Source: a bacterium
GTDB lineage: Bacteria > Patescibacteriota > Microgenomatia > Daviesbacterales > UBA10151
Length of the DNA stretch: 64,000 nucleotides
Assembly (NCBI GenBank): GCA_021786105.1
Contig: JAJYNW010000005.1
Location: forward strand, 32,001-96,000
Direction: 5' to 3'
This document shows, piece by piece, positions 15,619 to 62,679 of the stretch. Position 1 is the first letter of the stretch. Every line of letters begins with the position of its first letter. A model generated the notes under the pieces. That model worked only from the letters and a program-made list of their open reading frames with translations, was not told the DNA's origin and made no database searches. The position numbers and the translations under genes were made by a program.

Positions 15619-16494
15619 ATGAAAGGTATCATACTTGCAGGCGGTTCCGGAACAAGGCTTTATCCTCTAACTTTGGCTGTCAGTAAACAGCTTTTACCAA
15701 TTTTTGATAAACCGACAATTTATTATCCTTTGTCCACATTAATGCAGGCAGGAATTCGGGATATTTTGATTATTTCTACGGAAAAAGATTTACCAAGATT
15801 TTCTGATTTATTAGGAACAGGAGAAAAGATAGGATGCAATTTTTCTTACAAAGTACAGGCCCAGCCGCGGGGATTGGCCGATGCGTACATTGTAGGGGAA
15901 GAATTTATCGGTCAGGACAAAGTTGCCATGATTTTAGGGGACAATGTTTTTTATGGATCCACTATCGGAAAGAAATTGTCTGATTTTGCCGATGTTGATG
16001 GGGCAGTTGGATTTGCTGCTCCGGTAAATGATCCGCGGAGATATGGAGTTTACGAGTTCGATGACCAGATGAATGTCTTGTCAATTGAGGAGAAACCGGA
16101 ACATCCCAAGTCTAATTATGCCAATGCCGGTTTGTATTTTACTGACAACGAGGTAGTAGAAATTGCTAAAAACGTTAAGCCTTCGGGCCGGGGTGAAATA
16201 GAAATCACCTCAGTTTTAGATGCATATTTAAAAAAGGGGAAGCTTAAAGTTTGTTTATTGGATAGGGGTACCGCTTGGCTGGATACAGGAACCTTTGCCT
16301 CGATGAACCAGGCCTCGCAATTTGTCCAGGTAATTGAAGAGAGGCAGGGTTTAAAGATAGGCTGTATTGAAGAGGTGGCGTATAAAAAAGGCTTTATTAA
16401 TAAGGATCAGTTAATAAAATTAGCTGAGCCTCTTTTGAAAAGTGGCTACGGCCAGTACCTAATGGACATTGCGCAGGAGAAGATAGGTAAATGA
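15619..16494 (+). CDS. rfbA: Glucose-1-phosphate thymidylyltransferase
   Basis: [37 protein letters not shown]. Confidence 0.97.
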
Positions 16495-17501
16495 AGATTT
16501 TAGTTACTGGCGGTTGCGGTTTTATTGGGTCAAATTTTATCCGCTATTGGTCAAAAGCTCATCCGGATGATCAGGTAATAAACTTTGATAAGTTAACTTA
16601 TGCTGGGCATCTTTCTTCAACAAAAGATTTTGCCGATAATCCCAGCTACAAATTTATTCAGGGAGACATTTGTGATGAAGAATTGGTGAGCCAGGCAATG
16701 GAAGGGGTTGATACCGTGGTCCATTTTGCGGCTGAATCGCACGTTGACCGTTCCGTTTTGGATCCGATGGTTTTTATAAAAACAAACGTTTTAGGAACCG
16801 GAATACTTCTCAACACGGCCTTAAAACATTCAGTAAAGCGATTTCACCACGTCTCAACGGATGAAGTCTTTGGTCAACTAAAACCAGGAGAAGATCCCTG
16901 GACAGAGGATAGTAAATATATGCCAAGGACTCCTTATTCTGCCTCCAAAGCCGGGTCTGACCATCTGGTTCGGGCATATTTTGAAACTTATGGTTTGCCA
17001 GTAACAATTACCAATTGTGCCAATAATTTTGGTTTTTACCACGACCCGGAAAAATTAATTCCCCGATTTATTACCAACCTTTTGCTGGATAAAAAAGTTC
17101 CCTTAATGGGTAAAGGGGAAAATATCCGGGAGTGGTTATTTGCGGAAGACCATGCCCGAGCTATTGATTTGGTAATCCAGAAAGGTGAAATAGGAGAAAC
17201 TTACTGTGTAGGTGGGGAGGCAAAAACTAATTTAGAGGTGACGAAAGCAATCTTAAAGTTTTTAGGTAAGGATGAATCCTGGATCGAATATGTTGAACAC
17301 CGGTTAGGCCATGATTTTCGCTATGGTTTAGATGACGCCAAACTTAGAAAATTAGGATGGAAACCGGAACATGATTTTGATACTTGGCTTGAAAAAACCG
17401 TTAAATGGTACCAGGATAACAAGTGGTGGTGGGAACCGCTACTAAAAGATAAACCTGTGGTTGACAGGATAGCTCAAAAAAATTATGTCCAAAGCGTCTG
17501 A
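16491..17501 (+). CDS. rfbB: dTDP-glucose 4,6-dehydratase
   Basis: [35 protein letters not shown]. Confidence 0.96.
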
Positions 17502-18063
17502 ACATATTAAAACAACCGGAATAGAAGGTCTTTTTGTCATCGAACGGGAGACTCTTGATGATAGCAGAGGCTTCTTTAGAGAAGTTTTTCATCTTGATGA
17601 ACTGGAAGAAGTCCTAGGGTATAAGTTTGATGGAGTACAAATGAACCATTCGATGTCTAAGCCAGGGGTGGTTAGGGGAATTCATCCTGATCCTTGGGAT
17701 AAGTTAATCTATCCTGCCAGCGGCAAAGTATTTACAGCCATTGCTGATATTGACCCTAAGTCTCCAACATTTAAAAAGGTAGAGACCTTTACTATGGATG
17801 ATGATCATCGTTATGCTCTTTTTATTCGCAAGGGTTTGGGTAACAGTTTATGTGCCGTGGGAGAAGAACCTGTTAACTATATTTATTTGGTTACTTCTTA
17901 TTGGGATGGGAATTTGTTAAGCGGAATGAGGGCAGTAGCCTACAACGATCCGGATCTAAATATTGCCTGGCCGGTTGAAAACCCGATTATTTCCGAAAAA
18001 GATTTGCATAATAAAACTTTAAGGGAACATTATCAGGAGGAATATCCGGAGCTTTTTAGATGA
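17485..18063 (+). CDS. rfbC: dTDP-4-dehydrorhamnose 3,5-epimerase family (divergent)
   Basis: DSRGFFRE, QMNHS, GVVRGIH, NDPDLNIAWP, ISEKD. Confidence 0.88.
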   Translation: MSKASEHIKTTGIEGLFVIERETLDDSRGFFREVFHLDELEEVLGYKFDGVQMNHSMSKPGVVRGIHPDPWDKLIYPASGKVFTAIADIDPKSPTFKKVETFTMDDDHRYALFIRKGLGNSLCAVGEEPVNYIYLVTSYWDGNLLSGMRAVAYNDPDLNIAWPVENPIISEKDLHNKTLREHYQEEYPELFR

Positions 18064-18953
18064 ATAAGGTTTTGGTTTTTGGCGGGGAAGGATTAATCGG
18101 TTCCCGGTTTATTGAACTAAACAAAAAACGTTTTGATATCCAGACGCCCTTAGCGTGCGAAGTTGATTTTCTAAAAGATGACCAATTAGAAAAAGCCGTG
18201 AAGAGCTCCGATGCATCGATCATTATTAATTTTGTAGCTTATACCAATGTTGATGAGGCAGAAAAAGAAAAAGACAACAAGGATGGGGTGGTTTACAAAC
18301 TTAATGTCGGAAGCACGGAAAGGCTTACCCAGGCCTGTAAAGAAACCGGAAAATACTTAATTCATATTTCTACGGACTATGTTTTTGATGGTAAACAGGA
18401 AGACCGCCCTTATACTGAAGAAGATATTCCCAATCCTTTGAGCTGGTATGCCCAGACCAAATATCTCGCTGAGCAAGTTGTGACTGAAAGAGGGGATAAG
18501 TTTGCGATAGTACGTTTCGAACTTCCTTTCAGAAGCCACTACGAGATTAAAAAAGACATTGCCCGGTTTTTTGTGGAACAACTGCAACAAAATAAACAGA
18601 TAACGGCAATTACCGATCAAAAGATAACTCCATTATTTATTGACGACGGGGCTATGGCTTTGGGGGAGATAGCTGAGAATCAATCCCAGGGAGTTTACCA
18701 TGTTGTTTGCAGCGACTCGACTACTACCTTTGATTTTGTTAAATTAATTGCGGAAAAGTTCGGGTTGGATCAAAACTTAATTAAGCCCACAGCTTACGAT
18801 GAGTACAGTAAAACCCGGACTGCTCAAAGGCCTCACTATTCCTGGATGGATACCACAAAATTTAGGAAGCAGTTTGGAGAAGGAATTTTACATACAATTA
18901 GCGAGTCCCTGGATATTTTCAAACAGCAAATTGACGAAAAGAGTAGTAATTAG
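18060..18953 (+). CDS. rfbD: dTDP-4-dehydrorhamnose reductase
   Basis: AYTNVDEAE, HISTDYVFDG, YAQTK, RP.YS. Confidence 0.9.
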   Translation: MNKVLVFGGEGLIGSRFIELNKKRFDIQTPLACEVDFLKDDQLEKAVKSSDASIIINFVAYTNVDEAEKEKDNKDGVVYKLNVGSTERLTQACKETGKYLIHISTDYVFDGKQEDRPYTEEDIPNPLSWYAQTKYLAEQVVTERGDKFAIVRFELPFRSHYEIKKDIARFFVEQLQQNKQITAITDQKITPLFIDDGAMALGEIAENQSQGVYHVVCSDSTTTFDFVKLIAEKFGLDQNLIKPTAYDEYSKTRTAQRPHYSWMDTTKFRKQFGEGILHTISESLDIFKQQIDEKSSN

Positions 18954-18967: not shown

Positions 18968-19984
18968 ATGGCAAAGAAGAAACGGGCACTTATTACAGGC
19001 ATTACCGGACAAGACGGTTCCTACTTAACTGAGTTTTTGCTCGATAAAGGCTACGAAGTTGCAGGTTTGGTGAGAAGGACCATTACTAATGACCTCGGTA
19101 ATTCCAAACATCTCAAAGATGAAATTCTCGTTTATTATGGTGACCTCCAAGCTCCGGAATCAATAGCTTTAGCAATCTATGACTTTAAACCGGATGAGAT
19201 TTATAACTTAGCGGCGCAGTCTTCGCCAATGGCTTCGTTTAAGGACAAGTTAGGGACAATGGCAATTACCGGAACCGGAGCGGTGCATGTTTTTGACCGG
19301 GCTAAAGATATTGTTCCCAATGCTAAGATTTACCAAGCTTCTACCTCTGAGATGTTTGGTGCACCTCCTTGTGTACCGCAAAATGAAGAGACACCTCTAT
19401 CTCCGGCTAATCCTTATGCTGCAGCAAAACTTTATGCCCACCAAATGGCGAAGATTTCCCGGGTCGATAAAAACGATCCCCAATTTATCGCCTGTGGAAT
19501 ATTGTTTAACCATGAAAGTCCGCGACGTGGTATTAACTTTGTGACCAGGAAAATTACAGCCGCCGTTGCCTGTATTAAAAACGGCAAAACGGAAGGCATT
19601 CCTTTAAATGAATGGGGTGAGCCGATTGTCCAAAACGGAAAATTGAAGTTGGGTTACTTGGGTTCCAAGAGGGATTGGGGGTATTCCCCGGATTATGTCC
19701 AGGCAATGTGGCTGATGTTGCAGCAAGATAAACCGGATGATTTTATTGTGGCTACGGGAGAAGTCCATACAGTAGAAGATTTTTGCCGGGAAGCTTTTGC
19801 TGAAGTGGGGTTGGATTACAAGGATTATGTTGTTACTGACCCCAGTTTTATTCCTCCGGTAGAGACAGGGCCGCTTTGTGGGGATTACTCAAAAGCCAAA
19901 AAGGTTTTAGGCTGGAAACCAAAAACGACTTTTACGGAGTTGGTAAAAATTATGGTCCACTCCGATCTAGCTAAATTTTCCTAA
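18968..19984 (+). CDS. gmd: GDP-mannose 4,6-dehydratase (divergent)
   Basis: GITGQDGSYL, QASTSEMFG, PYAAAK, GILFNHESPRRG, RDWG. Confidence 0.88.
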   Translation: MAKKKRALITGITGQDGSYLTEFLLDKGYEVAGLVRRTITNDLGNSKHLKDEILVYYGDLQAPESIALAIYDFKPDEIYNLAAQSSPMASFKDKLGTMAITGTGAVHVFDRAKDIVPNAKIYQASTSEMFGAPPCVPQNEETPLSPANPYAAAKLYAHQMAKISRVDKNDPQFIACGILFNHESPRRGINFVTRKITAAVACIKNGKTEGIPLNEWGEPIVQNGKLKLGYLGSKRDWGYSPDYVQAMWLMLQQDKPDDFIVATGEVHTVEDFCREAFAEVGLDYKDYVVTDPSFIPPVETGPLCGDYSKAKKVLGWKPKTTFTELVKIMVHSDLAKFS

Positions 19985-20032: not shown

Positions 20033-21220
20033 ATGCCAAAGAAAAAAGTTGTCGTTTTGTTGCCGACTTATAACGAAAAGAATAATGTTGAGAAAGCAGC
20101 TAATGCAGTTCTTGCTCAAGAGAAAAATTTGCCGGGATGGGAAATAGAGGTTTTAATTTCTGATAGTAAATCCCCGGATGGGACGGGAGAGGTAGCTGCG
20201 CAACTTGCCAAAAAGAATCCCAAAATTCACTACCTTTCTACGGGTCGAGGTTTAGGTGTAGGTTTAATTGAAGGACATACTTATGCGGTTAAAAACTTAC
20301 ATCCGGATATCTTAGCCCAAATGGATGCTGACGGCCAGGTAGGTTGGGATGTGTTACCAAGATTGGTTAAAGCTATTGAGGAAGGTTATAATCTGGCTTT
20401 AGGATCTCGGTTTGTTTCCGGGGGGGCTAATAAACTATCCCCCATGCGCAGGTTATTTTCAGCCGGGTCTTCTTGGGTCAGCCGGATTTTGATTGGTCCT
20501 TTTGATGTTAAAGAGGTCACTAACTCTGCCCGAGCCTTTACTCCTGAATTATTCAAAAAAATCAACTTAGAAAGGCTTCCCTGGAAGGAACAAACTTTTA
20601 TTGTCCAACCGGCATTTTTGCATGAGGCGGTCATAGCCGGGGCCAAATATAAAGAGGTGCCGCTGGTTTTTGGTGATCGGGCGGAAGGGTATTCGAAAAA
20701 CAAGGTTCTCAACTACACCTATGATGTTATAACTTACGCTGTTGATGCCAGGTTGCATGCTTGGGGAATTAACATCCCTTTTTTCAAGGTGACCAGGAAA
20801 GCTAAAACTTTAATAAAGTTTAGTTTGGTGGGGTTGTTAGGAACTTTCGTCGACTTCTTCTTTTATAAATTATTTATCGGCAGTTTTAATATTCCTCCGG
20901 CTACTTCCAAAGGCATGTCAGCGGAATTAGCCATCATGAACAACTTTTTCTTTAATAATTTTTGGACTTTCCGCTCACGAAAAACCAATACTAACACTTG
21001 GCAAAGATTGGGAATGTTTAATCTTTTTAGTTTGGGAGGGTTGGTAATGGGGGTGCTCATAGTTAAATTCCTGCATACGTTATATGGAGATGGTTTTGCA
21101 ACTGTAGGAAATTTTAAGGTGGCATACAATAACTTTTATTTCTTTGCCACCATCCCTCCGGTTTTAGTTTGGAACTTTACCATAAATCATTTTATTACCT
21201 GGAAAAAACAAAAAGACTGA
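20033..21220 (+). CDS. DPM1-like polyprenyl-phosphate glycosyltransferase (GT2) fused to a GtrA-like flippase domain
   Basis: PTYNE, SPDGT, MDADG, GSRF, then KFSLVG...NNFFFNNFWTF...WNFTINHFITW (GtrA pattern). Confidence 0.88.
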   Translation: MPKKKVVVLLPTYNEKNNVEKAANAVLAQEKNLPGWEIEVLISDSKSPDGTGEVAAQLAKKNPKIHYLSTGRGLGVGLIEGHTYAVKNLHPDILAQMDADGQVGWDVLPRLVKAIEEGYNLALGSRFVSGGANKLSPMRRLFSAGSSWVSRILIGPFDVKEVTNSARAFTPELFKKINLERLPWKEQTFIVQPAFLHEAVIAGAKYKEVPLVFGDRAEGYSKNKVLNYTYDVITYAVDARLHAWGINIPFFKVTRKAKTLIKFSLVGLLGTFVDFFFYKLFIGSFNIPPATSKGMSAELAIMNNFFFNNFWTFRSRKTNTNTWQRLGMFNLFSLGGLVMGVLIVKFLHTLYGDGFATVGNFKVAYNNFYFFATIPPVLVWNFTINHFITWKKQKD

Positions 21221-21469
21221 TTAAAGATTTGTAAATATTCGGACTAAGGCAAAAAACGCGATTGCTACCCAAATAATGTTAAGTACTGCTGGCTGGTAGT
21301 TTCTCTTATAAAATGAAATAGCTATAATTCCGATTGCTCCGGTTAGGTTAAGGAGTTGATATAAAATAGTATTTGAATTTAGCAAGGACCAACTTACAAG
21401 TGCGTAAGACCCAACGATTGCTGCAGTCCCATACCAGCCAAAAATTTCAATTAGTTGCTTTTTTGCCAT
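21221..21469 (-). CDS. Small 3-TM membrane protein (CBU_0592-like)
   Basis: GWYG...SYAL...YQLLNLTG...LNIIW; start at MAKKQ (21469), just downstream of the 21474 gene. Confidence 0.65.
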   Translation of the reverse strand: MAKKQLIEIFGWYGTAAIVGSYALVSWSLLNSNTILYQLLNLTGAIGIIAISFYKRNYQPAVLNIIWVAIAFFALVRIFTNL

Positions 21470-21473
21470 ATTC

Positions 21474-22658
21474 TTAATTGAAAATTTGTGGGTTGGGGAA
21501 AGGCGCGGTGTTAGCCAAAATGAAATTTTGGGCATAAAGATAAATTGCCAAGGTAATAATTACTAAGACTATTTTAAACTCCTTGGAAGTAAGGTATCTC
21601 TCGAAAGCGATTAAGACAAAAGGAAAGATTGGTAAAACATAACGGCTGACATCCCGGTGGGCAACAAAAGTAGTCGCCCCAAGATAAGTGAGAGTGAAGA
21701 AAGCTAGGGGATAAAGCTTCTTCTTAAAAAGCGCTATTCCTCCGGCAAACCCTAAAAGAAGGATATAAACTATGTCTTCCAGCCACATACTTCCGACCCA
21801 GAATTGGTTTTTATTAAAGACTTGGTAAGGGGGGAAGGTAAGGTGAATATTGTCTCCGCTATGAAAGTAAGCGAAAAAATCTCCGTAGCTTATGGAATAC
21901 CAATAAAATATCCCCAATAGTGTTAAAGGGGCAAGGATTAAAGGGAAATAGGAAATTTTTAAGGAGATAATGCGCGGAAAAATATTATTCCATCCACCCT
22001 TAGCAAGTTTCCAAAGCAGATAGAGCGCTAAAGAGATAAACAACAAAATTCCGGGGGGCCGGGTAATTTGAGCACCTAACCCGGAAATTCCTGCCAAAAC
22101 AATAAATAAATAATTCTTTTTATCCTCATATTTCATAAAGAAGTATAAAGTGAGAATGGTAAAGAAAATAAACATTGGCTCAGCAGAGCCAACCGTATGG
22201 ACCACCAACCAACGGGCCGGAAGAATTAAAAAGACAACGCTCAAAAACAGCGGGTGTTCGCTAAGCTTAAAATCCCGAACCAGAAAATAGAAAGTAATTG
22301 CCGAAAGAACGGTAAAGCCTACAGCCACAAAAATCATTGATTTTAAAAAGCCCAAAATTGGGGCAAAAACTAGAATTGAAAGGGCATATCCGGGGAAATG
22401 AGCGGCAAAATAACCAGCTGGCATTGACTGGGGTAGGGTGGCAAAGGCTGGGGGACTATAAAGAGTTTTGGCGATCATGACATATTCCAGCCCGTCAAAA
22501 TTCCTATAGATTGTGTTGAACCCTTCAGAGAAATTTAATCCATAAAAATTAGGGATTCTCAGGATATGAGGAAGCCAAACTAATAAAGTAATACCTAATG
22601 TTGCCAGTATAATTATAGAAATATCTATGAAGGTCTTCTTCGAGGTAGAAGTTTCCAT
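21474..22658 (-). CDS. GT-C glycosyltransferase, PIG-V-like
   Basis: Multi-TM; NFDGLEYVMIA first-loop Asp, FPGY, AEPMF, TRPPG, RY near the C-terminus. Confidence 0.7.
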   Translation of the reverse strand: METSTSKKTFIDISIIILATLGITLLVWLPHILRIPNFYGLNFSEGFNTIYRNFDGLEYVMIAKTLYSPPAFATLPQSMPAGYFAAHFPGYALSILVFAPILGFLKSMIFVAVGFTVLSAITFYFLVRDFKLSEHPLFLSVVFLILPARWLVVHTVGSAEPMFIFFTILTLYFFMKYEDKKNYLFIVLAGISGLGAQITRPPGILLFISLALYLLWKLAKGGWNNIFPRIISLKISYFPLILAPLTLLGIFYWYSISYGDFFAYFHSGDNIHLTFPPYQVFNKNQFWVGSMWLEDIVYILLLGFAGGIALFKKKLYPLAFFTLTYLGATTFVAHRDVSRYVLPIFPFVLIAFERYLTSKEFKIVLVIITLAIYLYAQNFILANTAPFPNPQIFN

Positions 22659-30570: not shown

Positions 30571-30740
30571 ACTATAACCGCTTTGCCAGAACAGTGCATT
30601 TAAATTCTGAGTAAATTTGGCAAAGATAAGCGGAGCTTGCGACCTTCGGTCTAATGGTTTCAAACTTCCGCAGTTTAATGCTAGCAAAGCGGATGTAAAC
30701 TTGAAAGGAGAAAATGCAGACTTTCGGTCTGCGGAAGTTT
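30571..30740 (+). promoter_or_regulatory. Structured leader with overlapping inverted repeats (candidate cis-regulatory RNA or REP-like element)
   Basis: Pairings 30581-90/30616-25, 30578-89/30681-92 and 30662-73/30729-40; hairpins 30641-51 and 30716-32. Confidence 0.5.
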
Positions 30741-35699: not shown

Positions 35700-35704
35700 A
35701 ACAA

Positions 35705-35721
35705 ACAGACCGAAGGTCTGT
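35705..35721. repeat. 17-nt cGAAg triloop hairpin, sibling of 30716-30732
   Basis: acagacc-gaa-ggtctgt followed by gcaagtttATG. Confidence 0.65.
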
Positions 35722-35729
35722 GCAAGTTT

Positions 35730-39098: not shown

Positions 39099-39105
39099 AG
39101 CTTTG

Positions 39106-41079: not shown

Positions 41080-41123
41080 ATTCCAATTTTACATCATTGG
41101 TACTTTATATATAATGGGAATAT

Positions 41124-43993: not shown

Positions 43994-44010
43994 GTTGGTA
44001 ATATGGGAAT

Positions 44011-45783: not shown

Positions 45784-45839
45784 CGAGTTTGCATACCATC
45801 AAGTTTACTTGTGCCTCTGAAATTGTTAACATTTACTGT

Positions 45840-49969: not shown

Positions 49970-50095
49970 GACCTTATCATAGCATATAAGCATCTTGTAT
50001 TTGTGCATTTTAGCCTCAAATGGTGTATGATTCCTCGATTGCTTTCCTAAGGTAGCAATCTTTGCTAAACTTAAGAAAGAGGCCAGAACTAACTT

Positions 50096-56002: not shown

Positions 56003-57602
56003 GAAAAGATTAATTTTTGTTGTCCTGCTACTAATTCTTGGATTGGCTTCTGTTCTGCGTTTTTATAAATTAGACCAGGTCCCCCCGGCAATTTATTGGG
56101 ACGAGGCAGCTAATGGTTATAACGCTTATACCATTGCCAATTGGGGCCGAGATGAATGGGGGAAATTTTTACCCACCTCTTTTAAGTCATTTGGAGATGA
56201 TAAGAATCCGGTGCACATATATCTCACAGTAATTCCGGTAAGGATCTTAGGTCTAAACGAATTTAGCACCCGTTTACCGGCAGCCTTAATGGGGATCTTA
56301 GGTGTATTAATGGTTTATCTGTTGGGAGAAGCGATCTTTAACAACAAGAAAATTGGGCTTATTTCAGCGTTAGTTTTTGCTGTTTCCCCTTATACCTTAC
56401 AATTTTCCCGTTTTAACCATGAAGCGATTTTTACAATTTTCTTTTTCATGCTGGGGTTATGGTTGTTTTTAAAAGGTGTAAAAGTTAAGCCTAAACTTAT
56501 TCCTTTATCATTTTTTGTTTTTGGAGTTTCTATTTTAACCTACCACTCAGCAAAGATTGTAGTGCCACCCGTTATACTACTGCTTATTGTTTTGTATTTT
56601 AAAGACCTTTGGAAGCAAAAAGGGTTATTTTTGGGAGGACTAATTATTCTGGGGATAGTTATGAGCGTATTTATTTTTAACCCCGCACTTTTAGGGATGG
56701 CCCGGGCTAGCCAAACTTCAGTACCGGTAGAATCAATCCAGAAGATGAGTCTTTATAAAAAAACAGGGAATGAACTTTTAGGAAGGGTAGAGCTGAGTTG
56801 GCAAAGGTACTTAACTTACTTTGGCTATGATTTTCTCTTCGTTTCCGGAGATAAAATTGCCCGTCATTCTTCCCAGGGAGCGGGAGAATTTTACAGAATA
56901 GATTTAATATTTTTAGTTATTGGACTTTTATCCTTAATCCGTTATCGAAGGAAAGAAAGTCTAATTCTTTTGTCTTGGGCGGTTTTGGCACCCATCCCCG
57001 GAAGCATCGCTGGAGGAATTACCGAAACAGCGCACGCAGGCAGGTCGCTTTTTATAATGGGTAGTTGGCATCTACTGGCTGGACTGGGTTACTATAGTTT
57101 CTTAAAAATTTTCCGGAAAACTTGGGTCATTGTAATTGTCGGGGTGATACTTTTGGGTATTTTAGGGTGGCAGATGAAAGATTATCTGAATTATTACTAT
57201 GGTGAATATGTCACCAGATATGCTATTGAGTGGCAATATGGAATGAAACAAATTTCCCAGTATCTTCAGGAACATGATGGATATTCCCAGGTTTATATTA
57301 CTGATGCCAGGGTAGAGCCATATATCTTCCTTCTTTACTATATGCAGGTACCGTTACCAAGATTTTTGGATACGGTTTACTACAACGATACACAGAGCCG
57401 TCCATCTAATTTAGTGACTTTTTTTGATAAGTATCATTTTGGAGACTGGGACCCAATTGAGAGTTTCCCAAATCCCGGTGTCCTTTATGTCCTGACTCCC
57501 AGCCAATATGATGGATTACGATATAAACAACAATTTAAAGTGAAAAAACTGATAAAATATCCTAATGGGCTGGATGCCTTTTATCTGGTAGCCCTTTATT
57601 AA
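55980..57602 (+). CDS. GT-C glycosyltransferase, ArnT/PMT-like (tandem paralogue 3)
   Basis: WDEAANGYNAYTIANWGRDEWG, FGDDKNP, HAGR; start uncertain (55959 or 55980). Confidence 0.82.
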   Translation: MFTNIKSEKRLIFVVLLLILGLASVLRFYKLDQVPPAIYWDEAANGYNAYTIANWGRDEWGKFLPTSFKSFGDDKNPVHIYLTVIPVRILGLNEFSTRLPAALMGILGVLMVYLLGEAIFNNKKIGLISALVFAVSPYTLQFSRFNHEAIFTIFFFMLGLWLFLKGVKVKPKLIPLSFFVFGVSILTYHSAKIVVPPVILLLIVLYFKDLWKQKGLFLGGLIILGIVMSVFIFNPALLGMARASQTSVPVESIQKMSLYKKTGNELLGRVELSWQRYLTYFGYDFLFVSGDKIARHSSQGAGEFYRIDLIFLVIGLLSLIRYRRKESLILLSWAVLAPIPGSIAGGITETAHAGRSLFIMGSWHLLAGLGYYSFLKIFRKTWVIVIVGVILLGILGWQMKDYLNYYYGEYVTRYAIEWQYGMKQISQYLQEHDGYSQVYITDARVEPYIFLLYYMQVPLPRFLDTVYYNDTQSRPSNLVTFFDKYHFGDWDPIESFPNPGVLYVLTPSQYDGLRYKQQFKVKKLIKYPNGLDAFYLVALY

Positions 57603-57606: not shown

Positions 57607-58467
57607 ATGAAAATATCGGTAGCGTTAGCTGCATACAATGAAGAGGAGAATATTGGCGAGTGCTTAAAATCTATCCAGGATTTAGCGGATGAGATAGTTG
57701 TGGTGGTTGGTAAGTCTCCGGATAAGACGGCTGAAATAGCTAGAGGCTTTGGTGCAAAGGTTGTGGAAATTGAGAATGACCCAACAATGTTTCACAGGAT
57801 GAAACAAAAAGCTTTTGATTTAGCTCAGGGCGAATGGGTTCTCTATTTAGATGCGGATGAGAGGGTTTCTTTAAAACTTGCTGAGGAAATTAAAAAAATA
57901 ACCTCAATGAGTGATGAGGAAATTGAAAAATATCAAAAAAGTCTCAAGGACAGAAACCTATTTTTGCGCCACCAAAAGTTATTGGAGGGCAGGGATGGCA
58001 AAATCGGCGATGAGAATAAAGAATACGTTGCTTTTTTCTTTCCGCGTTTAAACTTTTTCCTGGGTAAATACTTACGTTTTGGAGGTGTATATCCGGATGG
58101 TGTGATTAGGCTATTTAAGAAGGGTAAGGCCCATCTTCCCTGTAAGGATGTCCATGAACAGATGACGGTTGAAGGCAAAGTGGGCTGGCTGCAAAATGAT
58201 TTATTGCATATGGCGGATCCAACATTTTCCAGATATTTAAACAGAAACAGCCGTTATATAAGTTTAATTGCCGGCCAGTTAAAAGACCAAAAAGTTGGCA
58301 AAAACTTCCTTCAATTTTTTAATTATTTTATTTTTAAGCCCATACACTGGTTTATTCTGACACAGGTAAGGCATAAAGGTATTCTGGATGGTTTCCAGGG
58401 GATAGTTTTTTCTTTCTTTTCTGCTTTGAGGTTCCCGCGGGCTTACTGGAGGTACTTAACTCAATGA
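57607..58467 (+). CDS. GT2 glycosyltransferase (WaaE/KdtX-like)
   Basis: YNEEENI, SPDKT, LDADER, YPD..IRLF, VHE. Confidence 0.87.
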   Translation: MKISVALAAYNEEENIGECLKSIQDLADEIVVVVGKSPDKTAEIARGFGAKVVEIENDPTMFHRMKQKAFDLAQGEWVLYLDADERVSLKLAEEIKKITSMSDEEIEKYQKSLKDRNLFLRHQKLLEGRDGKIGDENKEYVAFFFPRLNFFLGKYLRFGGVYPDGVIRLFKKGKAHLPCKDVHEQMTVEGKVGWLQNDLLHMADPTFSRYLNRNSRYISLIAGQLKDQKVGKNFLQFFNYFIFKPIHWFILTQVRHKGILDGFQGIVFSFFSALRFPRAYWRYLTQ

Positions 58468-59513
58468 TTAAGGTTGCTTTAGATACTTCTCCGCTTGTTT
58501 CTGGTCATAAAAGCCGGGGAATCGGCTTTTACACCAAAAATTTACTGGCTGCTATGGAGAAAAACTCAACTATCCAGGTTCGGGAATTTGAAAAAATTGA
58601 TCAGCTTGAAGATGCCGATATTATCCACTATCCCTATTTTGATCTTTTTCAACAAACACTCCCCTTTAGGAAAAAACTCCCTACAGTTGTTACCATCCAT
58701 GATGTTATTCCCTTGGAGTTTCCCCAACATTATCCTTCCGGTGTTCGGGGATCAATGAATAATTTTCTTCAAAAAATATCTTTAAAAAATGTTGCGGCAG
58801 TACTTACCGATTCCAAATTTTCACAGCAAGAAATCATTAAGTACTTGGGTGTGCCAAAGGAAAAAGTCTTTCCGGTTTATCTGGCACCAGCGGCCCATTT
58901 TCATCAGATCAAAGATCAAAATGTTCTGAAAAATACCCAACAAGAGTTCCAGTTACCGGAGAAGTTTGCTTTATTTAGCGGCGGTGCTAACTATAATAAA
59001 AATTTGCTTAATCTTACAGAGGCAACTTTAAAAGCAGGCTTGGATTTAGTAGTGGTGGGCAAGAGTTTTGAAACCCGGGAAAACCTTAACCATCCGGAAC
59101 TTTCGACTTTTGCTGAATTTTTAAAAAAATACGTCGACAATCCATTGGTCCATATGTTGGGTTTTGTGGAAGATGCGGATTTGGTAGCAATAATGAATCT
59201 GGCAACAGTTCTGCTTTTACCTTCCTTTGCTGAAGGATTCGGGCTGACTATCTTGGAAGCTCAAATTTGCGGCACGCCGGTGATTACCAGTAATATCTCT
59301 TCAATGCCGGAGGTGGCGGGAGAAGGAGCTATTCTAGTTGATCCATATTCAGTGGCGAATATATCCAAAGCCATTGAAGAGATAGTAACAGATAAGACAG
59401 TGGCAGAAGATTTGAGGAAAAAGGGGTTTGAAAATGTCAGTAAGTTTTCCTGGGAGAAGACTACTGAGGAGACCATTCAGGTTTATGAAAAAGTTATTTC
59501 CTCAAGAATTTAA
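58464..59513 (+). CDS. GT4 glycosyltransferase (MtfB/mannosyltransferase-like)
   Basis: RGIGFY, TIHDVIP, KN, PSFAEGFGLTILEA, SSMPEV. Confidence 0.88.
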   Translation: MIKVALDTSPLVSGHKSRGIGFYTKNLLAAMEKNSTIQVREFEKIDQLEDADIIHYPYFDLFQQTLPFRKKLPTVVTIHDVIPLEFPQHYPSGVRGSMNNFLQKISLKNVAAVLTDSKFSQQEIIKYLGVPKEKVFPVYLAPAAHFHQIKDQNVLKNTQQEFQLPEKFALFSGGANYNKNLLNLTEATLKAGLDLVVVGKSFETRENLNHPELSTFAEFLKKYVDNPLVHMLGFVEDADLVAIMNLATVLLLPSFAEGFGLTILEAQICGTPVITSNISSMPEVAGEGAILVDPYSVANISKAIEEIVTDKTVAEDLRKKGFENVSKFSWEKTTEETIQVYEKVISSRI

Positions 59514-60639
59514 GAGAATCCTTTCTTTGTTTATTATTTGGCGGGTATCTTTATTTGTAGTTGCCTTTTTGGCTACTACACTGATCCCCAATTTTGGCGC
59601 CCGCTTCCCGTATTATAATAATTTACTGATTCCCACCGGGCTACCTTCCTGGATCTGGGGTTTTGGGAATTTTGATGGTGTGCACTTTTTAAGGATTGCC
59701 ATGCTTGGTTACGAAGGATCAAATCTTTCTCAGGCTTTTTTCCCGCTGTACCCTCTGCTAATAAAAATATTTGCCTTCGGTAACCAATGGTTTTTGTCAG
59801 GTTTCATAGTTGCAAATATTTTTTCCCTATTTAGCTTATTTGTATTTTATAAACTGGTGAAACTGGACTTTAACGAGAAAGTTGCTTGGAGATCAGTGCT
59901 ATTGCTTATCGTATTTCCAACCTCATTTTATTTAGGGTCAATTTATTCAGAATCCTTATTTATTTTCTTGACTATTTCGAGCATTTACCTTTTGAGAAGG
60001 AAAAATTATTTAGGAGCAGGTCTTTTGGGAGGAATGGCTGCCGCTACCCGGCTTGTGGGGTTAATATTGGTACCTCTTTTTCTGGCAGAGATCTATCAAA
60101 GAAGAGGTGAGTTAAAAGATATAAGCAAAAAAGAAATTGCTAAGTATGTGGCAAGTATAGGGCTTGTTGGCGCAGGCTTTTTGTCTTATGTATATTTTTT
60201 ACAGATTCGTTTTGCCAATCCGTTGTATTTTCTTTCTGCCCCTTCTCAATTTGGGACAGGAAGAGAGAATATGCCTTTGGTTCTACTCCCCCAAGTCTTA
60301 TTTAGATACTTTAAAATGTTAGTTTCTACGCCGGTTATCTCCTTACCTTTTTTAAACGCCGCCCTAGAGGTCTTATTTACAGTCATTCCTCTGGCACTTC
60401 TGGTGCTTTTCTTTAAAAGGATGAGGTTGAGCTACTGGTTTTTTACCTTAACTTGTTTGGTAATTCCCACTCTGACCGGAACCTTTACTTCAATGCCCCG
60501 ATATGCACTTGTAAGTTTCCTGCTACTTCCTTTAGTCGCCCAAAAAACAGAGCGGTATTTTTATCTTTTAATCCTGTCACTTGTACTCTTGGGGGCAATT
60601 TTGTTAGGGTTATTTATTAGGGGGTATTGGGTGGCATAA
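59485..60639 (+). CDS. GT-C glycosyltransferase, PIG-V-like
   Basis: NFDGVHFLRIA..GY, AFFPLYP, YSESLF, TR.VG, SMPRY; start at ATG 59485. Confidence 0.82.
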   Translation: MKKLFPQEFKRILSLFIIWRVSLFVVAFLATTLIPNFGARFPYYNNLLIPTGLPSWIWGFGNFDGVHFLRIAMLGYEGSNLSQAFFPLYPLLIKIFAFGNQWFLSGFIVANIFSLFSLFVFYKLVKLDFNEKVAWRSVLLLIVFPTSFYLGSIYSESLFIFLTISSIYLLRRKNYLGAGLLGGMAAATRLVGLILVPLFLAEIYQRRGELKDISKKEIAKYVASIGLVGAGFLSYVYFLQIRFANPLYFLSAPSQFGTGRENMPLVLLPQVLFRYFKMLVSTPVISLPFLNAALEVLFTVIPLALLVLFFKRMRLSYWFFTLTCLVIPTLTGTFTSMPRYALVSFLLLPLVAQKTERYFYLLILSLVLLGAILLGLFIRGYWVA

Positions 60640-60641
60640 AA

Positions 60642-61883
60642 ATGATTCATAAAGTAAAACGCATTGTAAAGAATCCGTTATTTTCCGGCAGCCTGGTTAT
60701 GATTGTTGGCTCCAACGTTGGCAATGTCATTAATTATGTTTACCACTTGATTATGGGAAGAATGTTGGGTCCGTCCGCCTATGGTGAACTGGCAGTGCTG
60801 CTTTCCCTATTTGGAATTTTAGGGGTAGCTGCCACTGCGTTAAACCTGGTAGTAGTTAAATATATTTCGGCTGCAGAAGATGAAAAAGAAATTGCCGGAT
60901 TGGTAAAGTGGTTTGAAAGCAATACCTTCAGATTATCCCTAATTATTTTTGTTTTGATCGCCTTTATCTCTCCACTCGCTGCAAAGTTTCTAAATGTCAG
61001 CAGTTTTATCACAATTATCCTCATTGCTTTAGCTGTTGTCATTTCTTTTATAACTACAGTTGTGCGGTCTGCATTGCAGGGGTTATTAATGTTTACTCAA
61101 AATGTAGCCTCGTTCCTGATTGAACATATTTTAAAACTAACAATTGGAGTGATACTTGTCGTATTGGGTTTTTCGGTAGGAGGAGCAGTTTTTGCTTTAG
61201 TGATAGCAACACTTTTGAGCTTAATCGTTAGTCGGAAATTTCTTTCTCTTAAACCCTTAAATAGCACAGTTCCATTACCTGTAAAATCAGTCTTGTATTA
61301 TTCGATGCCTGTTTTATTTCAGTCAATTGCCATTACCTCGCTATATTCAACCGATCTTATTTTAGTAAAACATTTTTTTAATTCGCAGGATGCAGGCATT
61401 TATGCAGCCGTTTCTACTCTGGGAAAAATAATTTTCTTTACTGCCGGCCCAATTAGTTCAGTAATGTTTCCTATTGTTTCTAGAAGACATGCAAGAGGTG
61501 AAGATTACCAGAAACCTCTTTATTATAGTCTAGTGGCAACCGCTTTATCAGCTATTGTAGTTTTACTACTTTTTCAGTTTATACCCCAGCAGACATTGAC
61601 TGTTCTCTATGGAACATCTTATCTTTCTGGTGCGGGTTTGCTTATATACTTTGGAATCTTTGCAACACTCTTTACATTGTCATCACTACTTATAAATTTC
61701 CACCTTTCGCTCAAAAGATCGTGGGTAGTGGTTTTCCCGATTTTAGCAGCAATAGCGCAGATTATTGGTATCTGGAGTTTCCACTTTAGTCTTTTATCTG
61801 TTATTATGGTTTCCATAGTAGTAAGCAGTGGGCTTTTTGTAAGCCTGTTTGCTTATACAGTTTTCAAATACTATCTGCGCTAA
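60642..61883 (+). CDS. MOP/Wzx-like flippase
   Basis: About 12 TM; RMLGPSAYG, TDLILVK, AGIYAA, VMFP. Confidence 0.83.
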   Translation: MIHKVKRIVKNPLFSGSLVMIVGSNVGNVINYVYHLIMGRMLGPSAYGELAVLLSLFGILGVAATALNLVVVKYISAAEDEKEIAGLVKWFESNTFRLSLIIFVLIAFISPLAAKFLNVSSFITIILIALAVVISFITTVVRSALQGLLMFTQNVASFLIEHILKLTIGVILVVLGFSVGGAVFALVIATLLSLIVSRKFLSLKPLNSTVPLPVKSVLYYSMPVLFQSIAITSLYSTDLILVKHFFNSQDAGIYAAVSTLGKIIFFTAGPISSVMFPIVSRRHARGEDYQKPLYYSLVATALSAIVVLLLFQFIPQQTLTVLYGTSYLSGAGLLIYFGIFATLFTLSSLLINFHLSLKRSWVVVFPILAAIAQIIGIWSFHFSLLSVIMVSIVVSSGLFVSLFAYTVFKYYLR

Positions 61884-61884
61884 T

Positions 61885-62679
61885 ATGGCTAAGAAGCAAT
61901 TAATATCGATCATTGTTCCCGCATACCGACAAGGTAGCACTATAAAGAAAGATTTGGAAAACATAGACCATGTACTTTCGGAAAGCTTACAGGATTTTGA
62001 TTATGAGATCATTTGTGTTGTAGATGGGATGATCGACAAAACTTACGAAGAAGCGCAAAAAGTAAAATTGCCCAGAGTTAAAGTGGTAGGTTATGAGCAG
62101 AATAAGGGAAAAGGGTATGCAGTCCGTTTTGGGATGGCCAGATCAAAAGGAGACCTTATTTCTTTTTTGGATGCAGGAATGGAGATCAGCCCGGCTTCGG
62201 TCATGATGTTGATGGCCCATATGAAATGGTATAACGCTGATATTATCGTTGGTTCCAAGCGCCACCCCGTTTCCCGGGTAAATTATCCACTGTTACGCCA
62301 TATTTTTAGTATCGGATATCACCTTGGGGTAAAGATCCTTTTTGGGTTACCTCTAAGTGATACTCAAAGCGGAATCAAAATATTTAAAAGAAAGGTAATG
62401 GAAGTAGTATTGCCTCGGCTATTAGTTAAAAAATATGCTATGGATATTGAAATGCTGGCAGTGGCGCGGTGCTTAGGGTTTAAACGCATTTACGAGGCTC
62501 CGATTGAGGTGACCTTTGATAAAAAAACGAGTGCAATCTCCTGGAAAGTTATTTTAAGGATGGTCATGGATACATTAGCAATTTTTTACCGGCTAAAGGT
62601 TCTTGGGTATTACAATGATGGGAATGAAAGAAAATGGCGTTTTGACCCCGATTTGCATTTCAGAGTAAATGTAGGCTAA
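61885..62679 (+). CDS. GT2 ALG5/DPM-like polyprenyl-phosphate glycosyltransferase
   Basis: PAY, VDG, NKGKGYAV, LDAG, GSKRH, DTQSGIK, DIEML. Confidence 0.86.
   Translation: MAKKQLISIIVPAYRQGSTIKKDLENIDHVLSESLQDFDYEIICVVDGMIDKTYEEAQKVKLPRVKVVGYEQNKGKGYAVRFGMARSKGDLISFLDAGMEISPASVMMLMAHMKWYNADIIVGSKRHPVSRVNYPLLRHIFSIGYHLGVKILFGLPLSDTQSGIKIFKRKVMEVVLPRLLVKKYAMDIEMLAVARCLGFKRIYEAPIEVTFDKKTSAISWKVILRMVMDTLAIFYRLKVLGYYNDGNERKWRFDPDLHFRVNVG

Follow-up and report, generated by a model that had tools for sequence, protein, structure and literature searches.

Why an ultra-small bacterium might carry so many GT-C glycosyltransferases: a candidate surface glycosylation island in Candidatus Daviesbacteria

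An uncultured, ultra-small Candidatus Daviesbacteria (Microgenomates, CPR), with a genome of about one megabase, encodes about 35 candidate glycosyltransferases of the GT-C type, and some 23 of them sit in one island. What could such a cell be doing with them? To our knowledge, an island of such scale has not been seen in model bacteria. The answer that we favor, with a probability of about 0.72 for the full explanation taken jointly, is that these genes form a transmembrane glycosylation system, multi-component and hyper-expanded, whose membrane enzymes most likely add sugars to the cell surface from the outside.

The island and its supply of donors

The window—the whole stretch of DNA analyzed, 64,000 nucleotides—carries the first 48 kb of the island, with most genes co-directional (coordinates below are window positions, on the forward strand unless marked minus). 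A sequence-only reading had ended the locus, at about 47 kb, at position 62679, but that right boundary is not real: a soluble TPR protein follows (62693..63718; TPR families, no hydrophobic helix), and past the window similar glycosylation genes continue to the end of the contig, C4, making the island at least 77.5 kb long. Its packing is operon-like, about 99% coding with a largest gap of 253 bases. The open reading frames lay where that reading had put them, apart from four starts moved by 18–57 bases through the choice of upstream GTG/TTG codons, and profile searches returned the same inventory: nine GT2s (four of them polyprenyl-phosphate-sugar-synthase-like), one GtrA domain, two MOP flippases, two GT4s, rmlABCD, and gmd.

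The island opens with sugar-nucleotide genes. Two of these exceed curated cut-offs, namely rmlA, glucose-1-phosphate thymidylyltransferase (15619..16494; PF00483; TIGR01207, 431.9 bits against 360.65), and rmlB, dTDP-glucose 4,6-dehydratase (16491..17501; TIGR01181, 441.4 against 365.1). Behind them stand an rmlC-like 3,5-epimerase (17485..18063; PF00908, E 6e-38; TIGR01221, 110 bits, below the cut-off of 155.75), an rmlD-like reductase (18060..18953; PF04321, E 4e-61; TIGR01214, 199 bits, below 224), and a gmd-like GDP-mannose 4,6-dehydratase (18968..19984; PF16363, E 4e-98; TIGR01472, 317 bits, below 415).

Four GT2s in the window, and six in the whole island, are of the DPMS/ArnC/GtrB synthase type. 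The first (20033..21220; PF00535 and PF04138) is a DPMS-type polyprenyl-phosphate-hexose synthase fused to a GtrA-type membrane domain, the sole GtrA match in the genome; it aligns over almost its full length (residues 4–346) with the solved structure of the Pyrococcus dolichol-phosphate-mannose synthase, PDB 5mlz (E 1.5e-35). The other three lack membrane helices: 22687..23382 (231 aa; ArnC 9hwj, E 1.8e-16; DPMS 5mlz, 7.5e-14; GtrB 5ekp, 5e-8), 24917..25663 (248 aa; best NCBIfam matches PgfS, ArnC, and dolichyl-phosphate-hexose transferase, E about 1e-18, each short of its cut-off), and 61849..62679 (PgfS 5e-13, PpgS 1.4e-11, ArnC 3e-6, none reaching its cut-off). Another GT2, of 312 aa and lying beyond the window, has a full-length match to ArnC (E 5e-58). 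Since every NCBIfam match of the GT2s and GT-Cs falls below its curated cut-off, no specific function can be transferred to any of them.

Three synthase/GT-C pairs adjoin at the 5' end of the island. For one, 22687 with its partner 23384, the orthologs form a single open frame of 715–761 aa in 22 of the 42 relatives that have an ortholog (with PMT_2 matches inside the fused frame in nine of those 22); in G007, a 723-aa frame aligns to both proteins. Together with the gene inventory and the DPMS and ArnC/DPMS/GtrB matches of 20033 and 22687, this fusion supports the proposal, made from the sequence before, of extracytoplasmic glycosylation fed by lipid-phosphate sugars. The passages of PMC8035078 on such systems describe the general scheme as a GT-A synthase, a GtrA- or Wzx-type flippase, and a GT-C, and state that one flippase can serve several synthase/GT-C pairs. 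We envisage that the synthase GT2s would load single sugars onto polyprenyl phosphate at the cytoplasmic face, that the lipid-phosphate sugars would be flipped, and that the GT-Cs would transfer the sugars on the outer face, those without an adjoining synthase drawing on the same few donor pools. The donor side counts against this explanation: it is small, four to six synthase-like GT2s and one GtrA domain against about 23 GT-Cs, and three of the window's four synthase-like GT2s have no membrane helices.

Seventeen GT-C candidates

Are the multi-pass proteins really GT-Cs? The sequence-only reading had proposed 17 in the window, and all have some support: 13 exceed the curated cut-off of a Pfam family of GT-C type, one lies just below, and structure or homology supports the GT-C identity of the three (32235, 39106, and 44011) for which the Pfam search gave no match. 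Eight of the 13 match PMT or PMT_2: 21474..22658, minus (394 aa; PF02366 PMT, 23.4 bits against 22.7; FDG motif after helix 1; an ortholog in all four compared genomes); 23384..24892 (502 aa; PF13231, 39.3 bits; GDEGRD); 25638..27206 (522 aa; PF13231, 37 bits; ADEA); 35730..37241 (503 aa; PF13231, 48.3 bits; GDE); 41124..42638 (504 aa; PF02366, 40.8 bits; LDE); and 52806..54458 (550 aa; PF02366, 39.8 bits; PF13231, 39.4 bits), 54455..56002 (515 aa; PF13231, 52.9 bits), and 55959..57602 (547 aa; PF13231, 66.6 bits), these last three all with a WDE motif and forming a paralog group with 35730 and C14:7396. PTPS_related (PF10131) is matched by 27203..28858 (551 aa; 33.5 bits) and by 28846..30570 (574 aa; 28.7 bits; PMT_2, 24.9 bits; HDD), the former being a paralog of the latter and of C8:7939. 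The remaining three are 37238..38473 (411 aa; PF05007 PIG-M, 26.5 bits against 23.4; GT87, 21.4 bits; orthologs in two of four compared genomes), the YfhO-family protein 47570..50008, minus (812 aa; PF09586, 116.7 bits; PgfM2, E 1.4e-10, below cut-off), and the PIG-V-like 59428..60639 (403 aa; PF04188, 38.1 bits; FDG; paralog C5:16121). Just under threshold is the weakly supported 42596..43993 (465 aa; PF09594 GT87, 24.0 bits against 25; HDD; paralog C7:835).

Three remain that have no Pfam match. For 39106..41079, minus (657 aa), an AF2 model (pLDDT 85, pTM 0.89) searched with Foldseek resembles STT3, DPY19, AglB, PglB, AftA, and ArnT (E 2e-10 to 7e-4, TM about 0.5); the protein belongs to an unannotated GT-C family and has 688 relatives, the best 120 of which lack any Pfam domain. 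The long protein 32235..35699 (1154 aa) has the same membrane domain as 39106 (phmmer E 1e-83), preceded by a signal/anchor helix and an external deacetylase/glycoside-hydrolase-like domain; the model of this N-terminal domain (pLDDT 81.5) matches 3lm3 (E 7e-16), NodB-type deacetylases, and ArnD. For 44011..45783 (590 aa), the structure neighbors in the Atlas are ArnT/PMT_2-type clusters (TM 0.64–0.79); the gene is patchy, present in four of 60 relatives and in none of 18 same-genus genomes. Two other small proteins lie among these genes: a 104-aa membrane protein of the CBU_0592 family (21221..21535, minus; NF047864, 44 bits against 25) and a 210-aa bitopic protein with helices at both ends and no Pfam or NCBIfam match (38466..39098).

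An acidic motif had been claimed for the first external loop of all 17. It can be read after the first helix in 15, where a K/R-rich N-terminus precedes helix and motif and thus puts the motif on the outside; the N-termini of 32235 and 39106 are organized differently. By a crude hydropathy count, the candidates have 5–17 helices, at least seven in all except 52806, which has five. It has to be asked whether many of these paralogs are instead flippase helpers (Agl23-like), acceptor-binding subunits, or degenerate copies, with few active GT-Cs among them. Eight PMT_2-type proteins do match TIGR03663 (flippase activity-associated Agl23; E 2e-6 to 4e-12), and the whole system has a single GtrA domain, but the matches reach 27–46 bits, far under the cut-off of 126, the acidic motif is kept in 15 of 17, and the island's orthologs, 30–75% identical, are free of stop codons. 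We consider this unlikely.

A probable wall glycan and likely acceptors

The window also encodes two MOP (Wzx-type) flippases, 30714..32234 (PF13440, E 1e-51) and 60627..61883 (PF01943, E 1e-19), and seven further transferases: GT2s at 45789..46742, 50096..50899, 51972..52790, and 57607..58467 (PF00535, E 3e-22, 2e-20, 2e-29, and 3e-15), a rhamnosyltransferase-like GT2 at 46739..47590 (TIGR01556, E 1e-26, below cut-off), and GT4s at 50899..51975 and 58464..59513 (PF00534, E 2e-21 and 2e-26). Is this, then, an ordinary Wzx/Wzy-dependent O-antigen or capsule locus with extra decorating enzymes? The rmlABCD genes, the soluble GT2s and GT4s, and the flippases would suit it, as would five Wzy_C proteins encoded elsewhere in the genome. 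For the window, this is largely refuted, and we give it the smallest chance of any alternative: the only Wzy_C match there, in 55959 (0.0032), is below threshold, the Pfam search found no Glycos_transf_4, Bac_transf, Wzz, or Wza, as had been read from the sequence, the GT-Cs outnumber all other transferases, and the core is conserved across genera rather than strain-variable.

The initiator had been expected elsewhere in the genome, and one WecA-like Glycos_transf_4 protein is encoded on contig C21; a genome search found no Bac_transf initiator. Since the 92%-complete assembly yielded no separate MraY, this single protein might stand in for MraY instead of initiating a glycan. The same contig encodes an LCP ligase. 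In the system that we favor, the soluble GT2s and GT4s probably make a lipid-diphosphate-linked, rhamnose-containing oligosaccharide: the WecA-like enzyme would begin its synthesis, the MOP flippases would carry it across the membrane, and the LCP ligase would join it to the wall. The likely acceptors would be this wall glycan and/or Pro/Thr-rich stalks of surface proteins.

The earlier comparison with GtrAB and CsbB/GtcA/YfhO was apt, but the mycobacterial LAM/arabinogalactan pathway, with many GT-Cs on few donors, is a closer analogue. Adjoining the WecA-like gene is a UbiA protein scoring 214.9 against 207 with the decaprenyl-phosphate phosphoribosyltransferase (DPPR-synthase-like) model; a DprE1-type ALO domain (ribose donor to arabinose) was not found in the genome search.

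Could membrane lipids be the main targets of the GT-Cs, as they are for ArnT, so that a cell unable to synthesize lipids would re-tailor those scavenged from a host? The ArnT/ArnC-like matches and the LPG_synthase_TM and MBOAT genes of the extended island could be read so, but nothing supports this specifically, and the external domain of 32235, the lectin-like F5/8-type C domains on two GT-Cs downstream of the window, and the LCP ligase point to glycan acceptors; we think it improbable.

One product or many, and what is conserved

The island lies at the same chromosomal site, with the same gene order, in G007, G005, and G003 of the same genus and in G023 of another. All 41 genomes of the class contain PMT_2 matches, at a median of 21.5 per genome, compared with 3 for other CPR classes. 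The high GT-C count is a class-wide trait, and the locus is syntenic between genera and not peculiar to the genome studied. Because of this, a mainly strain-variable role of the core in phage evasion, as once suggested, is disfavored; only the middle cassette (37238–50008), including the PIG-M protein, is variable, its genes being present or absent independently of one another.

Do the GT-Cs, then, build one thing? That they act in sequence is pure inference; they could just as well decorate several acceptors in parallel. It is possible, though clearly the lesser prospect, that the island is a set of separate tools, each GT-C or small group decorating its own acceptor—several surface proteins (PMT/TMTC-like O-glycosylation), a teichoic-acid-like polymer, pili, or glycolipids—with one or a few sugars and no single long external glycan. 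The independent coming and going of the cassette genes would agree with this, and so would the diversity of the 17 GT-Cs, which fall into at least 11 distinct, unrelated subfamilies, the GT-C/TPR fusions elsewhere in the genome, and the resemblance of the three canonical synthase/GT-C pairs to those that work independently in Bacillus and Lactococcus, as described in PMC8035078. Candidate substrates are also at hand: 16 open reading frames, most with a hydrophobic N-terminal segment, contain Ser/Thr/Pro-rich stretches, among them a surface-anchored (PT)n protein at 7265–7999. But fourteen GT-Cs lack a synthase of their own, and the strict gene order of the core across genera and its tight operon packing suggest one coordinated product. 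If the island is the multi-component system that we favor, its conserved core would make a conserved envelope glycan, which the middle cassette would vary.

Extent and setting of the island

The genome studied here, G000, is assembled into 26 contigs totalling 1,037,274 bases and is 92% complete; the window corresponds to C4:32001-96000. The closest named records holding a relative of one island protein, at 51-52% identity, come from two MAGs, one assigned to Candidatus Daviesbacteria and one to the Microgenomates group, and NCBI taxonomy places Daviesbacteria within the Microgenomates group of the Patescibacteria group. On its 5' side, the surface-glycosylation island is preceded by housekeeping genes, namely SecA, a release factor, FtsE/FtsX with two PcsB-like proteins and TsaE. 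Two details of this flank are worth recording in their own right. The PcsB-like proteins are adjoining coiled-coil paralogs of 405 and 409 aa (8041-10491, minus strand), only the first of which has an M23 peptidase match; because the same-genus genome G007 has one PcsB-like ortholog, we take the pair to be a lineage-specific duplication. At 14141-14449 (plus strand), an ORF of 102 aa covers just positions 30-84 of the TsaD profile, and since it has an ortholog of the same length in G007 (63% identity) and full-length reciprocal best hits in G005 (also of the genus) and G023 (from another genus of the family), it is a conserved short TsaD/TsaB-like protein and not a fragment.

Genes in the island are tightly packed: from 15619 to 63718, 38 ORFs with a summed length of 47,706 bases occupy a span of 48,100 bases, the biggest gap is 253 bases and stop/start overlaps are frequent. 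The sequence-only reading had drawn the right-hand boundary at 62679, and there it was mistaken, for contig C4 beyond the window again consists of glycosylation genes, up to the end of the contig. The whole island thus extends from C4:47619 to C4:125069, or 77.5 kb. Its part past the window encodes a weakly GT87-like protein of 1039 aa; a DltB-like MBOAT protein (E 2e-46) with an AlgX-type SGNH partner; two GT4; an LPG_synthase_TM protein, a methyltransferase and an epimerase; PMT_2 proteins of 697, 761 and 677 aa; four GT2, one of them a full-length ArnC match (E 5e-58); a membrane protein of 874 aa with an F5/8 type C domain; and, at C4:124095-125069, a PMT_2 gene truncated by the contig end. 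Counted over its whole length, the island has ~23 GT-C candidates, 19 of which have good support; of the 21 GT2 matches in the genome, 13 lie in it.

The contig ends at C4:124095-125069 and C7:3-875 both lie inside PMT/PMT_2-type genes, with the C-termini cut off. Paralogous GT-C genes probably caused the assembly to break at these places, and, with contigs broken inside such genes, the island may exceed 77.5 kb. Contigs from four DNA sequencing runs were compared with 32000-51900. One contig of the probable source run spans this interval; a run from another study yielded near-identical pieces, 34 of 47 being at least 99% alike, and depth in 30 of 30 bins. The one long joint in that second run, from 37594 to 51154, has a side of 22 letters and is not trustworthy, so we do not read it as strain-level variation of the middle cassette (37238-50008). 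For 35730-45700, no RNA dataset is listed as containing the sequence.

The GT-C proteins and an unannotated family

What are the many membrane proteins of this island? Seventeen in the window had been called GT-C-type from sequence, and that call has support for every one of them, with 42596 and 44011 the weakest (we name proteins by the left ends of their ORFs, a trailing minus sign marking the minus strand). Thirteen of the 17 score above a curated Pfam cut-off: PMT/PMT_2 in eight, PTPS_related in two, and PIG-M, YfhO and PIG-V in one each, families that we take, along with GT87, to be a single GT-C clan. The protein at 42596 reaches 24.0 bits for GT87 against a cut-off of 25, and three more (32235, 39106- and 44011) have no Pfam match; for these last, support comes from an AlphaFold2 model and Foldseek (39106-), from homology to 39106- (32235) and from structure neighbours in the Atlas (44011). 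The other counts made from sequence, nine GT2, two GT4, two MOP flippases, rmlABCD, gmd and one GtrA domain, were also right.

The same reading had placed an acidic motif in the first external loop of all these proteins; we can read it in 15 of the 17, and in 32235 and 39106- it is not at that place. The N-terminal layout in those 15 is a K/R-rich start, one helix and then the motif, which is DE in eight (23384, 25638, 35730, 41124, 44011, 52806, 54455 and 55959), DD in 28846 and 42596, HPD in 37238, FDG in 21474- and 59428, and a single D in 27203 and 47570-. Given the K/R-rich start, the positive-inside rule would put the motif outside the cell. Helices number 5-17 per protein, and at least seven in 16 of the 17, by a hydropathy scan that is admittedly crude.

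An all-against-all phmmer comparison of the 17 gives three paralog groups (35730, 52806, 54455 and 55959; 27203 and 28846; 32235 and 39106-), and leaves 11 others with no paralog in the window, three of which (23384, 42596 and 59428) have one paralog on another contig. Judged by sequence, at least 11 distinct GT-C subfamilies are present, and the 17 are not a recent tandem burst. Nor do the window proteins look like GT39 (PMT) protein O-mannosyltransferases, which are recognised by MIR together with a C-terminal 4-TM domain: Pfam finds neither MIR nor PMT_4TMC on any of them, and it is the truncated ORF C7:3-875 that matches PMT plus PMT_4TMC. Outside the window, a Pfam scan of 80 multi-pass ORFs (at least 250 aa, at least five predicted helices) and a paralogy search add 12 candidates on C5, C6, C7, C8, C13, C14 and C23. 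The genome total is then ~35 among ~1,071 ORFs of at least 70 aa, with 26 of the ~35 resting on an above-cut-off match, strong paralogy or structure.

Two proteins call for separate remarks. The Atlas version of 44011-45783 (plus strand) starts only at residue 53, which would cost the protein its first helix and the PDE motif. A GT-C architecture is more in keeping with the longer ORF, so public gene calls for this protein may be too short. Its Atlas model has ArnT/PMT_2/RgtA-like clusters as neighbours (TM 0.64-0.79), and we treat these as a lead, not proof, that it is a GT-C. At 21221-21535 (minus strand), a small membrane protein of the CBU_0592 family (104 aa) overlaps the 3' end of the GT-C gene 21474-22658; blastp finds no match to it in the four compared stretches of related genomes at E <= 1e-10 or <= 1e-20, and it could be a small flippase-like helper.

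The proteins 39106- and 32235 belong to a family that has gone without annotation. Sequence searches of PDB chains give no usable match for them (best E 0.45 and 0.023, respectively) and none at all for 44011. For 39106-, which was aligned with 19 relatives from genomes of the class, the AlphaFold2 model (mean pLDDT 85.1, pTM 0.89) is a multi-helix bundle with a C-terminal globular domain, and Foldseek returns 26 PDB matches at E <= 0.001, every one a GT-C enzyme. These include STT3 of the human and yeast OST (E 2e-10 to 2e-8, TM 0.45-0.50), the C-mannosyltransferase DPY19, AglB, PglB, ALG12 and ArnT; the best TM-score belongs to AftA (0.52/0.57), AftD and ALG9 follow with weaker E-values, and AftB and EmbA match too. 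With STT3, AglB and PglB on this list, it is natural to ask whether the pair are oligosaccharyltransferases. We have rejected that reading, because neither protein has an STT3 Pfam match or a WWD motif: the sole STT3 match in the 92%-complete genome (0.0034, below threshold) is on another ORF, and the family consensus has PWWF in a membrane loop and a C-terminal domain without WWD. The TM of ~0.5 between the model and the OSTs signifies the same fold class only. In 39106-, the invariant residues H134-D135, D170 and D186 lie in the first large loop.

The longer protein, 32235 (1154 aa), contains the membrane domain of 39106- (phmmer E 1e-83), preceded by a signal/anchor helix and by ~460 residues that form a further domain. 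As modelled (pLDDT 81.5), this N-terminal domain matches the putative glycoside hydrolase/deacetylase 3lm3 (E 7e-16, TM 0.57/0.65) and, further, NodB-type polysaccharide deacetylases, ArnD and GH57/GH38 enzymes; an Atlas search with the same part returns unnamed clusters only. The family comprises 688 proteins at E <= 1e-5 among 8,000 candidates scored, and the best 120 of the 688 have no precomputed Pfam domain and are named "hypothetical protein" where they are named. It occurs in 38 of the 61 genomes of the class sample, where its ~660-aa and ~1150-aa forms usually adjoin.

Donors, partners and conservation

Enzymes of this kind need something to feed on, and the island encodes several likely makers of donors. 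The GT2 fused to a GtrA domain at 20033 (395 aa) aligns over residues 4-346 with the solved Pyrococcus dolichol-monophosphate-mannose synthase (E 1.5e-35) and carries the genome's only GtrA_DPMS_TM match (PF04138); the whole catalytic domain of 22687 matches solved ArnC (E 1.8e-16), DPMS (7.5e-14) and GtrB (5e-8). For these two and for 24917 and 61849, also polyprenyl-P-sugar-synthase-like GT2, the best NCBIfam models are PgfS, ArnC, dolichyl-phosphate hexose transferase, AglJ and PpgS, all far below cut-off, so that the enzyme class alone can be inferred. Two further GT2, 46739 and 51972, look like rhamnosyltransferases, again below cut-off.

Three synthase/GT-C pairs open the island (20033/21474-, 22687/23384 and 24917/25638), and the 14 other GT-Cs of the window have no adjacent synthase. 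One base separates 22687 and 23384 in G000; in G007, the orthologs of these genes (231 and 502 aa) are a single ORF of 723 aa, which aligns with the first at 47% identity over 233 residues and with the second at 54% over 489. An ortholog of 22687 was found at E <= 2.3e-58 in 42 of 60 relatives, and 22 of the 42 sit in open frames of 715-761 aa; for nine of those 22, a PMT_2 match was obtained independently in a frame of the same length at adjoining coordinates. A gene fusion, as these reading frames present it, ties a synthase to its GT-C. The predicted gene products of the island comprise what defines multi-component transmembrane glycosylation: a synthase of the GT-A class, GtrA- and Wzx-type flippases, and a synthase and a GT-C encoded together.

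A more familiar kind of locus might be suspected. The sequence-only reading saw no WecA/WbaP initiator and no Wzz/Wza in the window, and Pfam bears this out, showing no Glycos_transf_4, Bac_transf, Wzz or Wza there and a sole Wzy_C match of 0.0032. The polymerase, the chain-length regulator or exporter and the initiator that mark a Wzx/Wzy-dependent O-antigen or capsule locus thus appear to be absent from this one. That an initiator should be sought elsewhere in the genome proved good advice: a single Glycos_transf_4 member lies on C21 and is WecA-like (E 4.5e-27 for WecA vs 1.3e-10 for MraY, both below cut-off). Searches of the 92%-complete assembly gave neither Bac_transf nor a separate MraY. 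A gene of the UbiA family overlaps the WecA-like gene at its 3' end; the two lie at C21:49301-51234, preceded by a membrane GT2 of 591 aa and an ORF of 109 aa. The UbiA-family protein passes one model of decaprenyl-phosphate phosphoribosyltransferase (NF008978, 214.9 vs a cut-off of 207) and falls just short of another (229.5 vs 234), and it would add a lipid-linked pentose to the donors. C21 also encodes an LCP (LytR-CpsA-Psr) ligase, and five Wzy_C proteins are spread over other contigs.

We compared C4 proteins, by reciprocal best hits, with stretches of G007, G005, G003 (a third genome of the genus) and the complete G023, 85.8-180 kb per genome, and anything reported as not found holds for those stretches only. 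The comparison of GT-C counts and order that had been proposed turned out to be rewarding, for the island stands at the same site in all four, after the release factor, FtsEX, TsaD-like and CAP genes. From the 5' end, the order kept is rml genes, gmd, the DPMS-GtrA protein (20033), 21474-, GT2 with 23384, GT2, 25638, 27203, 28846, flippase, 32235 and 35730; further on, it is GT2, GT2, GT4, 52806, 54455, 55959, GT2, 59428, flippase and GT2. Ortholog identities across the stretches are 30-78%. The cassette itself is patchier: 37238, 39106-, 41124 and 47570- have reciprocal best hits in two of the four stretches, 42596 in one and 44011 in none, and 44011 used as a query finds a match in only four of 60 relatives and in no genome of the 18 from the same genus.

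All 41 genomes sampled from the class, which range from 0.7 to 1.8 Mb, have PMT_2 matches (E <= 0.001, and not to be read as exact gene counts). These number 3-38 per genome, with a median of 21.5 over the 40 relatives. Of 71 genomes sampled across the phylum, 65 have at least one match. Counts are 0-18 in the 67 genomes from other classes (median 3, with 10 or more in four) and 23-31 in the three of the same class.

Known systems, acceptors and meaning

GT-C enzymes, as characterised, take polyprenyl-(pyro)phosphate-linked sugars as donors and work on the non-cytoplasmic face of the membrane. That this island carries out extracytoplasmic glycosylation fed by lipid-phosphate sugars had been proposed together with an extent of 47 kb; the proposal agrees with the gene set, which fits the multi-component transmembrane scheme, and the extent does not survive, being at least 77.5 kb. 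For wall polymers of Gram-positive bacteria, PMC8035078 describes such a scheme, in which a GT-A synthase works with a GtrA- or Wzx-type flippase and a GT-C; its table lists one to three pairs per model organism, and one flippase can serve three pairs. The GT-C number here is ~10 times that of the GT-C/synthase pairs listed there. As in CsbB/GtcA/YfhO, GtlA/GtlB, CsdAB/CD/EF with CflA, GacI/J/K/L and GtrA/GtrB/Gtr, synthase, flippase and a PMT_2- or YfhO-type GT-C lie side by side. Unlike in those Gram-positive and phage systems, there are 17 GT-Cs in the window, ~23 in the island and ~35 in a 1.04-Mb genome, mostly without a synthase of their own, and in relatives of this genome the synthase is often fused to the GT-C. 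No island protein matches an NCBIfam model of the Gram-positive/phage three-component systems above cut-off. On our analysis, the island fits the scheme at a much larger scale. The Pgf system of Streptococcus mutans (PgfS, PgfM1, PgfE and PgfM2) offers another likeness, in that GT2s match PgfS, 47570- matches PgfM2 and there are surface proteins with Thr-rich stalks, but the matches are far below the equivalog cut-offs (48-67 bits vs 500; 40 vs 1500).

Many GT-Cs served by few synthases bring to mind the mycobacterial synthesis of LAM and arabinogalactan, as do the AftA-type fold matches and the DPPR-synthase-like gene. In mycobacteria and corynebacteria (Ppm1 with PimE and MptA-C; the UbiA DPPR synthase with AftA-D and EmbA-C), a small set of lipid-P-sugar donors supplies a large number of GT-Cs, which lengthen a glycan on the outer side of the membrane; a mycobacterial genome is about four times the size of this ultra-small CPR genome. 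Shared features are a DPPR-synthase-like UbiA beside a WecA-like gene, GT87-like matches (weak) and an LCP ligase; the similarity of 39106- to AftA, AftD, AftB and EmbA is one of fold only. Unlike the mycobacterial pathway, the 92%-complete G000 assembly shows no DprE1-type ALO domain, and arabinosyltransferase Pfam families are absent from the matches. The dolichol and GPI pathway of the ER lumen (DPM1, ALG3/9/12, PIG-M, PIG-V, PMT, DPY19 and STT3) is echoed in a DPMS-type synthase, in PIG-M, PIG-V and PMT Pfam matches, in fold matches to STT3, DPY19, ALG9 and ALG12, and in the use of donors on the far side of the membrane. It differs in that here there is no STT3 Pfam match and no MIR/PMT_4TMC, the similarity being at fold or clan level only, and nothing suggests an N-glycan or a GPI anchor as the product.

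What might all of this decorate? Sixteen ORFs are locally rich in Ser/Thr/Pro, having 14 or more Ser/Thr and 22 or more Ser/Thr/Pro within 40 residues, and most of them start with a hydrophobic N-terminal segment. One protein without a Pfam match, encoded 8 kb upstream of the island at 7265-7999 (minus strand, 244 aa), runs from a signal peptide through a globular part and a long (PT)n stalk to a C-terminal membrane anchor, and it is a plausible candidate for an O-glycosylation substrate. The deacetylase/hydrolase-like domain that 32235 carries on the outside suggests glycan acceptors, and so do the F5/8 type C domains and the LCP ligase. C-terminal TPR fusions are seen on a weak PMT_2 protein (C5:25760-27376), on an unassigned membrane domain (C13:21018-22913) and on Wzy_C (C24:805-2868), and, being TMTC-like, they give a hint of protein acceptors. 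The GT-Cs may work one after another on a single glycan or side by side on a range of acceptors; since gene order is kept from one genus to another, the island core more likely makes a coordinated and conserved product, and the cassette would supply variation.

It is already known that CPR bacteria are rich in glycosyltransferases: PMC12153355 calls these enzymes abundant in CPR and DPANN, and PMC5220378 describes one Parcubacterium with 20 glycosyltransferases and rmlABCD, for which polysaccharides, glycoproteins or a glycosylated S-layer were proposed. In the literature searched, from which supplements and subscription journals were out of reach, we found no description of a GT-C expansion in CPR, and neither GT-C dominance nor the conserved super-island, the fusion or the new family was found in print there.

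The system, as we see it, is multi-component transmembrane glycosylation, of a known kind that is here hyper-expanded and class-wide, with two smaller novelties in the unannotated GT-C family with its fused external deacetylase-like domain and in the widespread synthase/GT-C fusion. A bolder picture, to which we would give about three chances in ten, is that the whole class of the Microgenomates assembles the greater part of its cell coat on the far side of the membrane, using ~20-35 GT-Cs per cell, a bacterial counterpart of the mycobacterial and ER-lumenal strategy laid down in a conserved super-operon of ~7% of a 1-Mb genome. That picture includes the STT3/DPY19/AftA-like unannotated family (39106- and 32235, the long form fused to a deacetylase/hydrolase-like domain) as perhaps a new oligosaccharyl- or arabinosyl/ribosyl-transferase using a DPPR-synthase-derived donor, and synthase/GT-C fusions that channel lipid-P-sugar from maker to user.

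There are handles by which these ideas can be tested: the natural synthase/GT-C fusion for biochemistry, the conserved core against the variable cassette for comparative glycomics, the large unannotated GT-C family and the candidate acceptors. There is also a warning for annotators, because the "hypothetical membrane proteins" of these genomes are often GT-Cs. CPR bacteria, or Patescibacteria, account for much of bacterial diversity; they live on the surface of other cells, with next to no biosynthesis of their own. Here one whole class would devote ~3% of its genes (~35 of ~1,070 ORFs) to glycosylation outside the membrane, with ~7% of the DNA in a single island.
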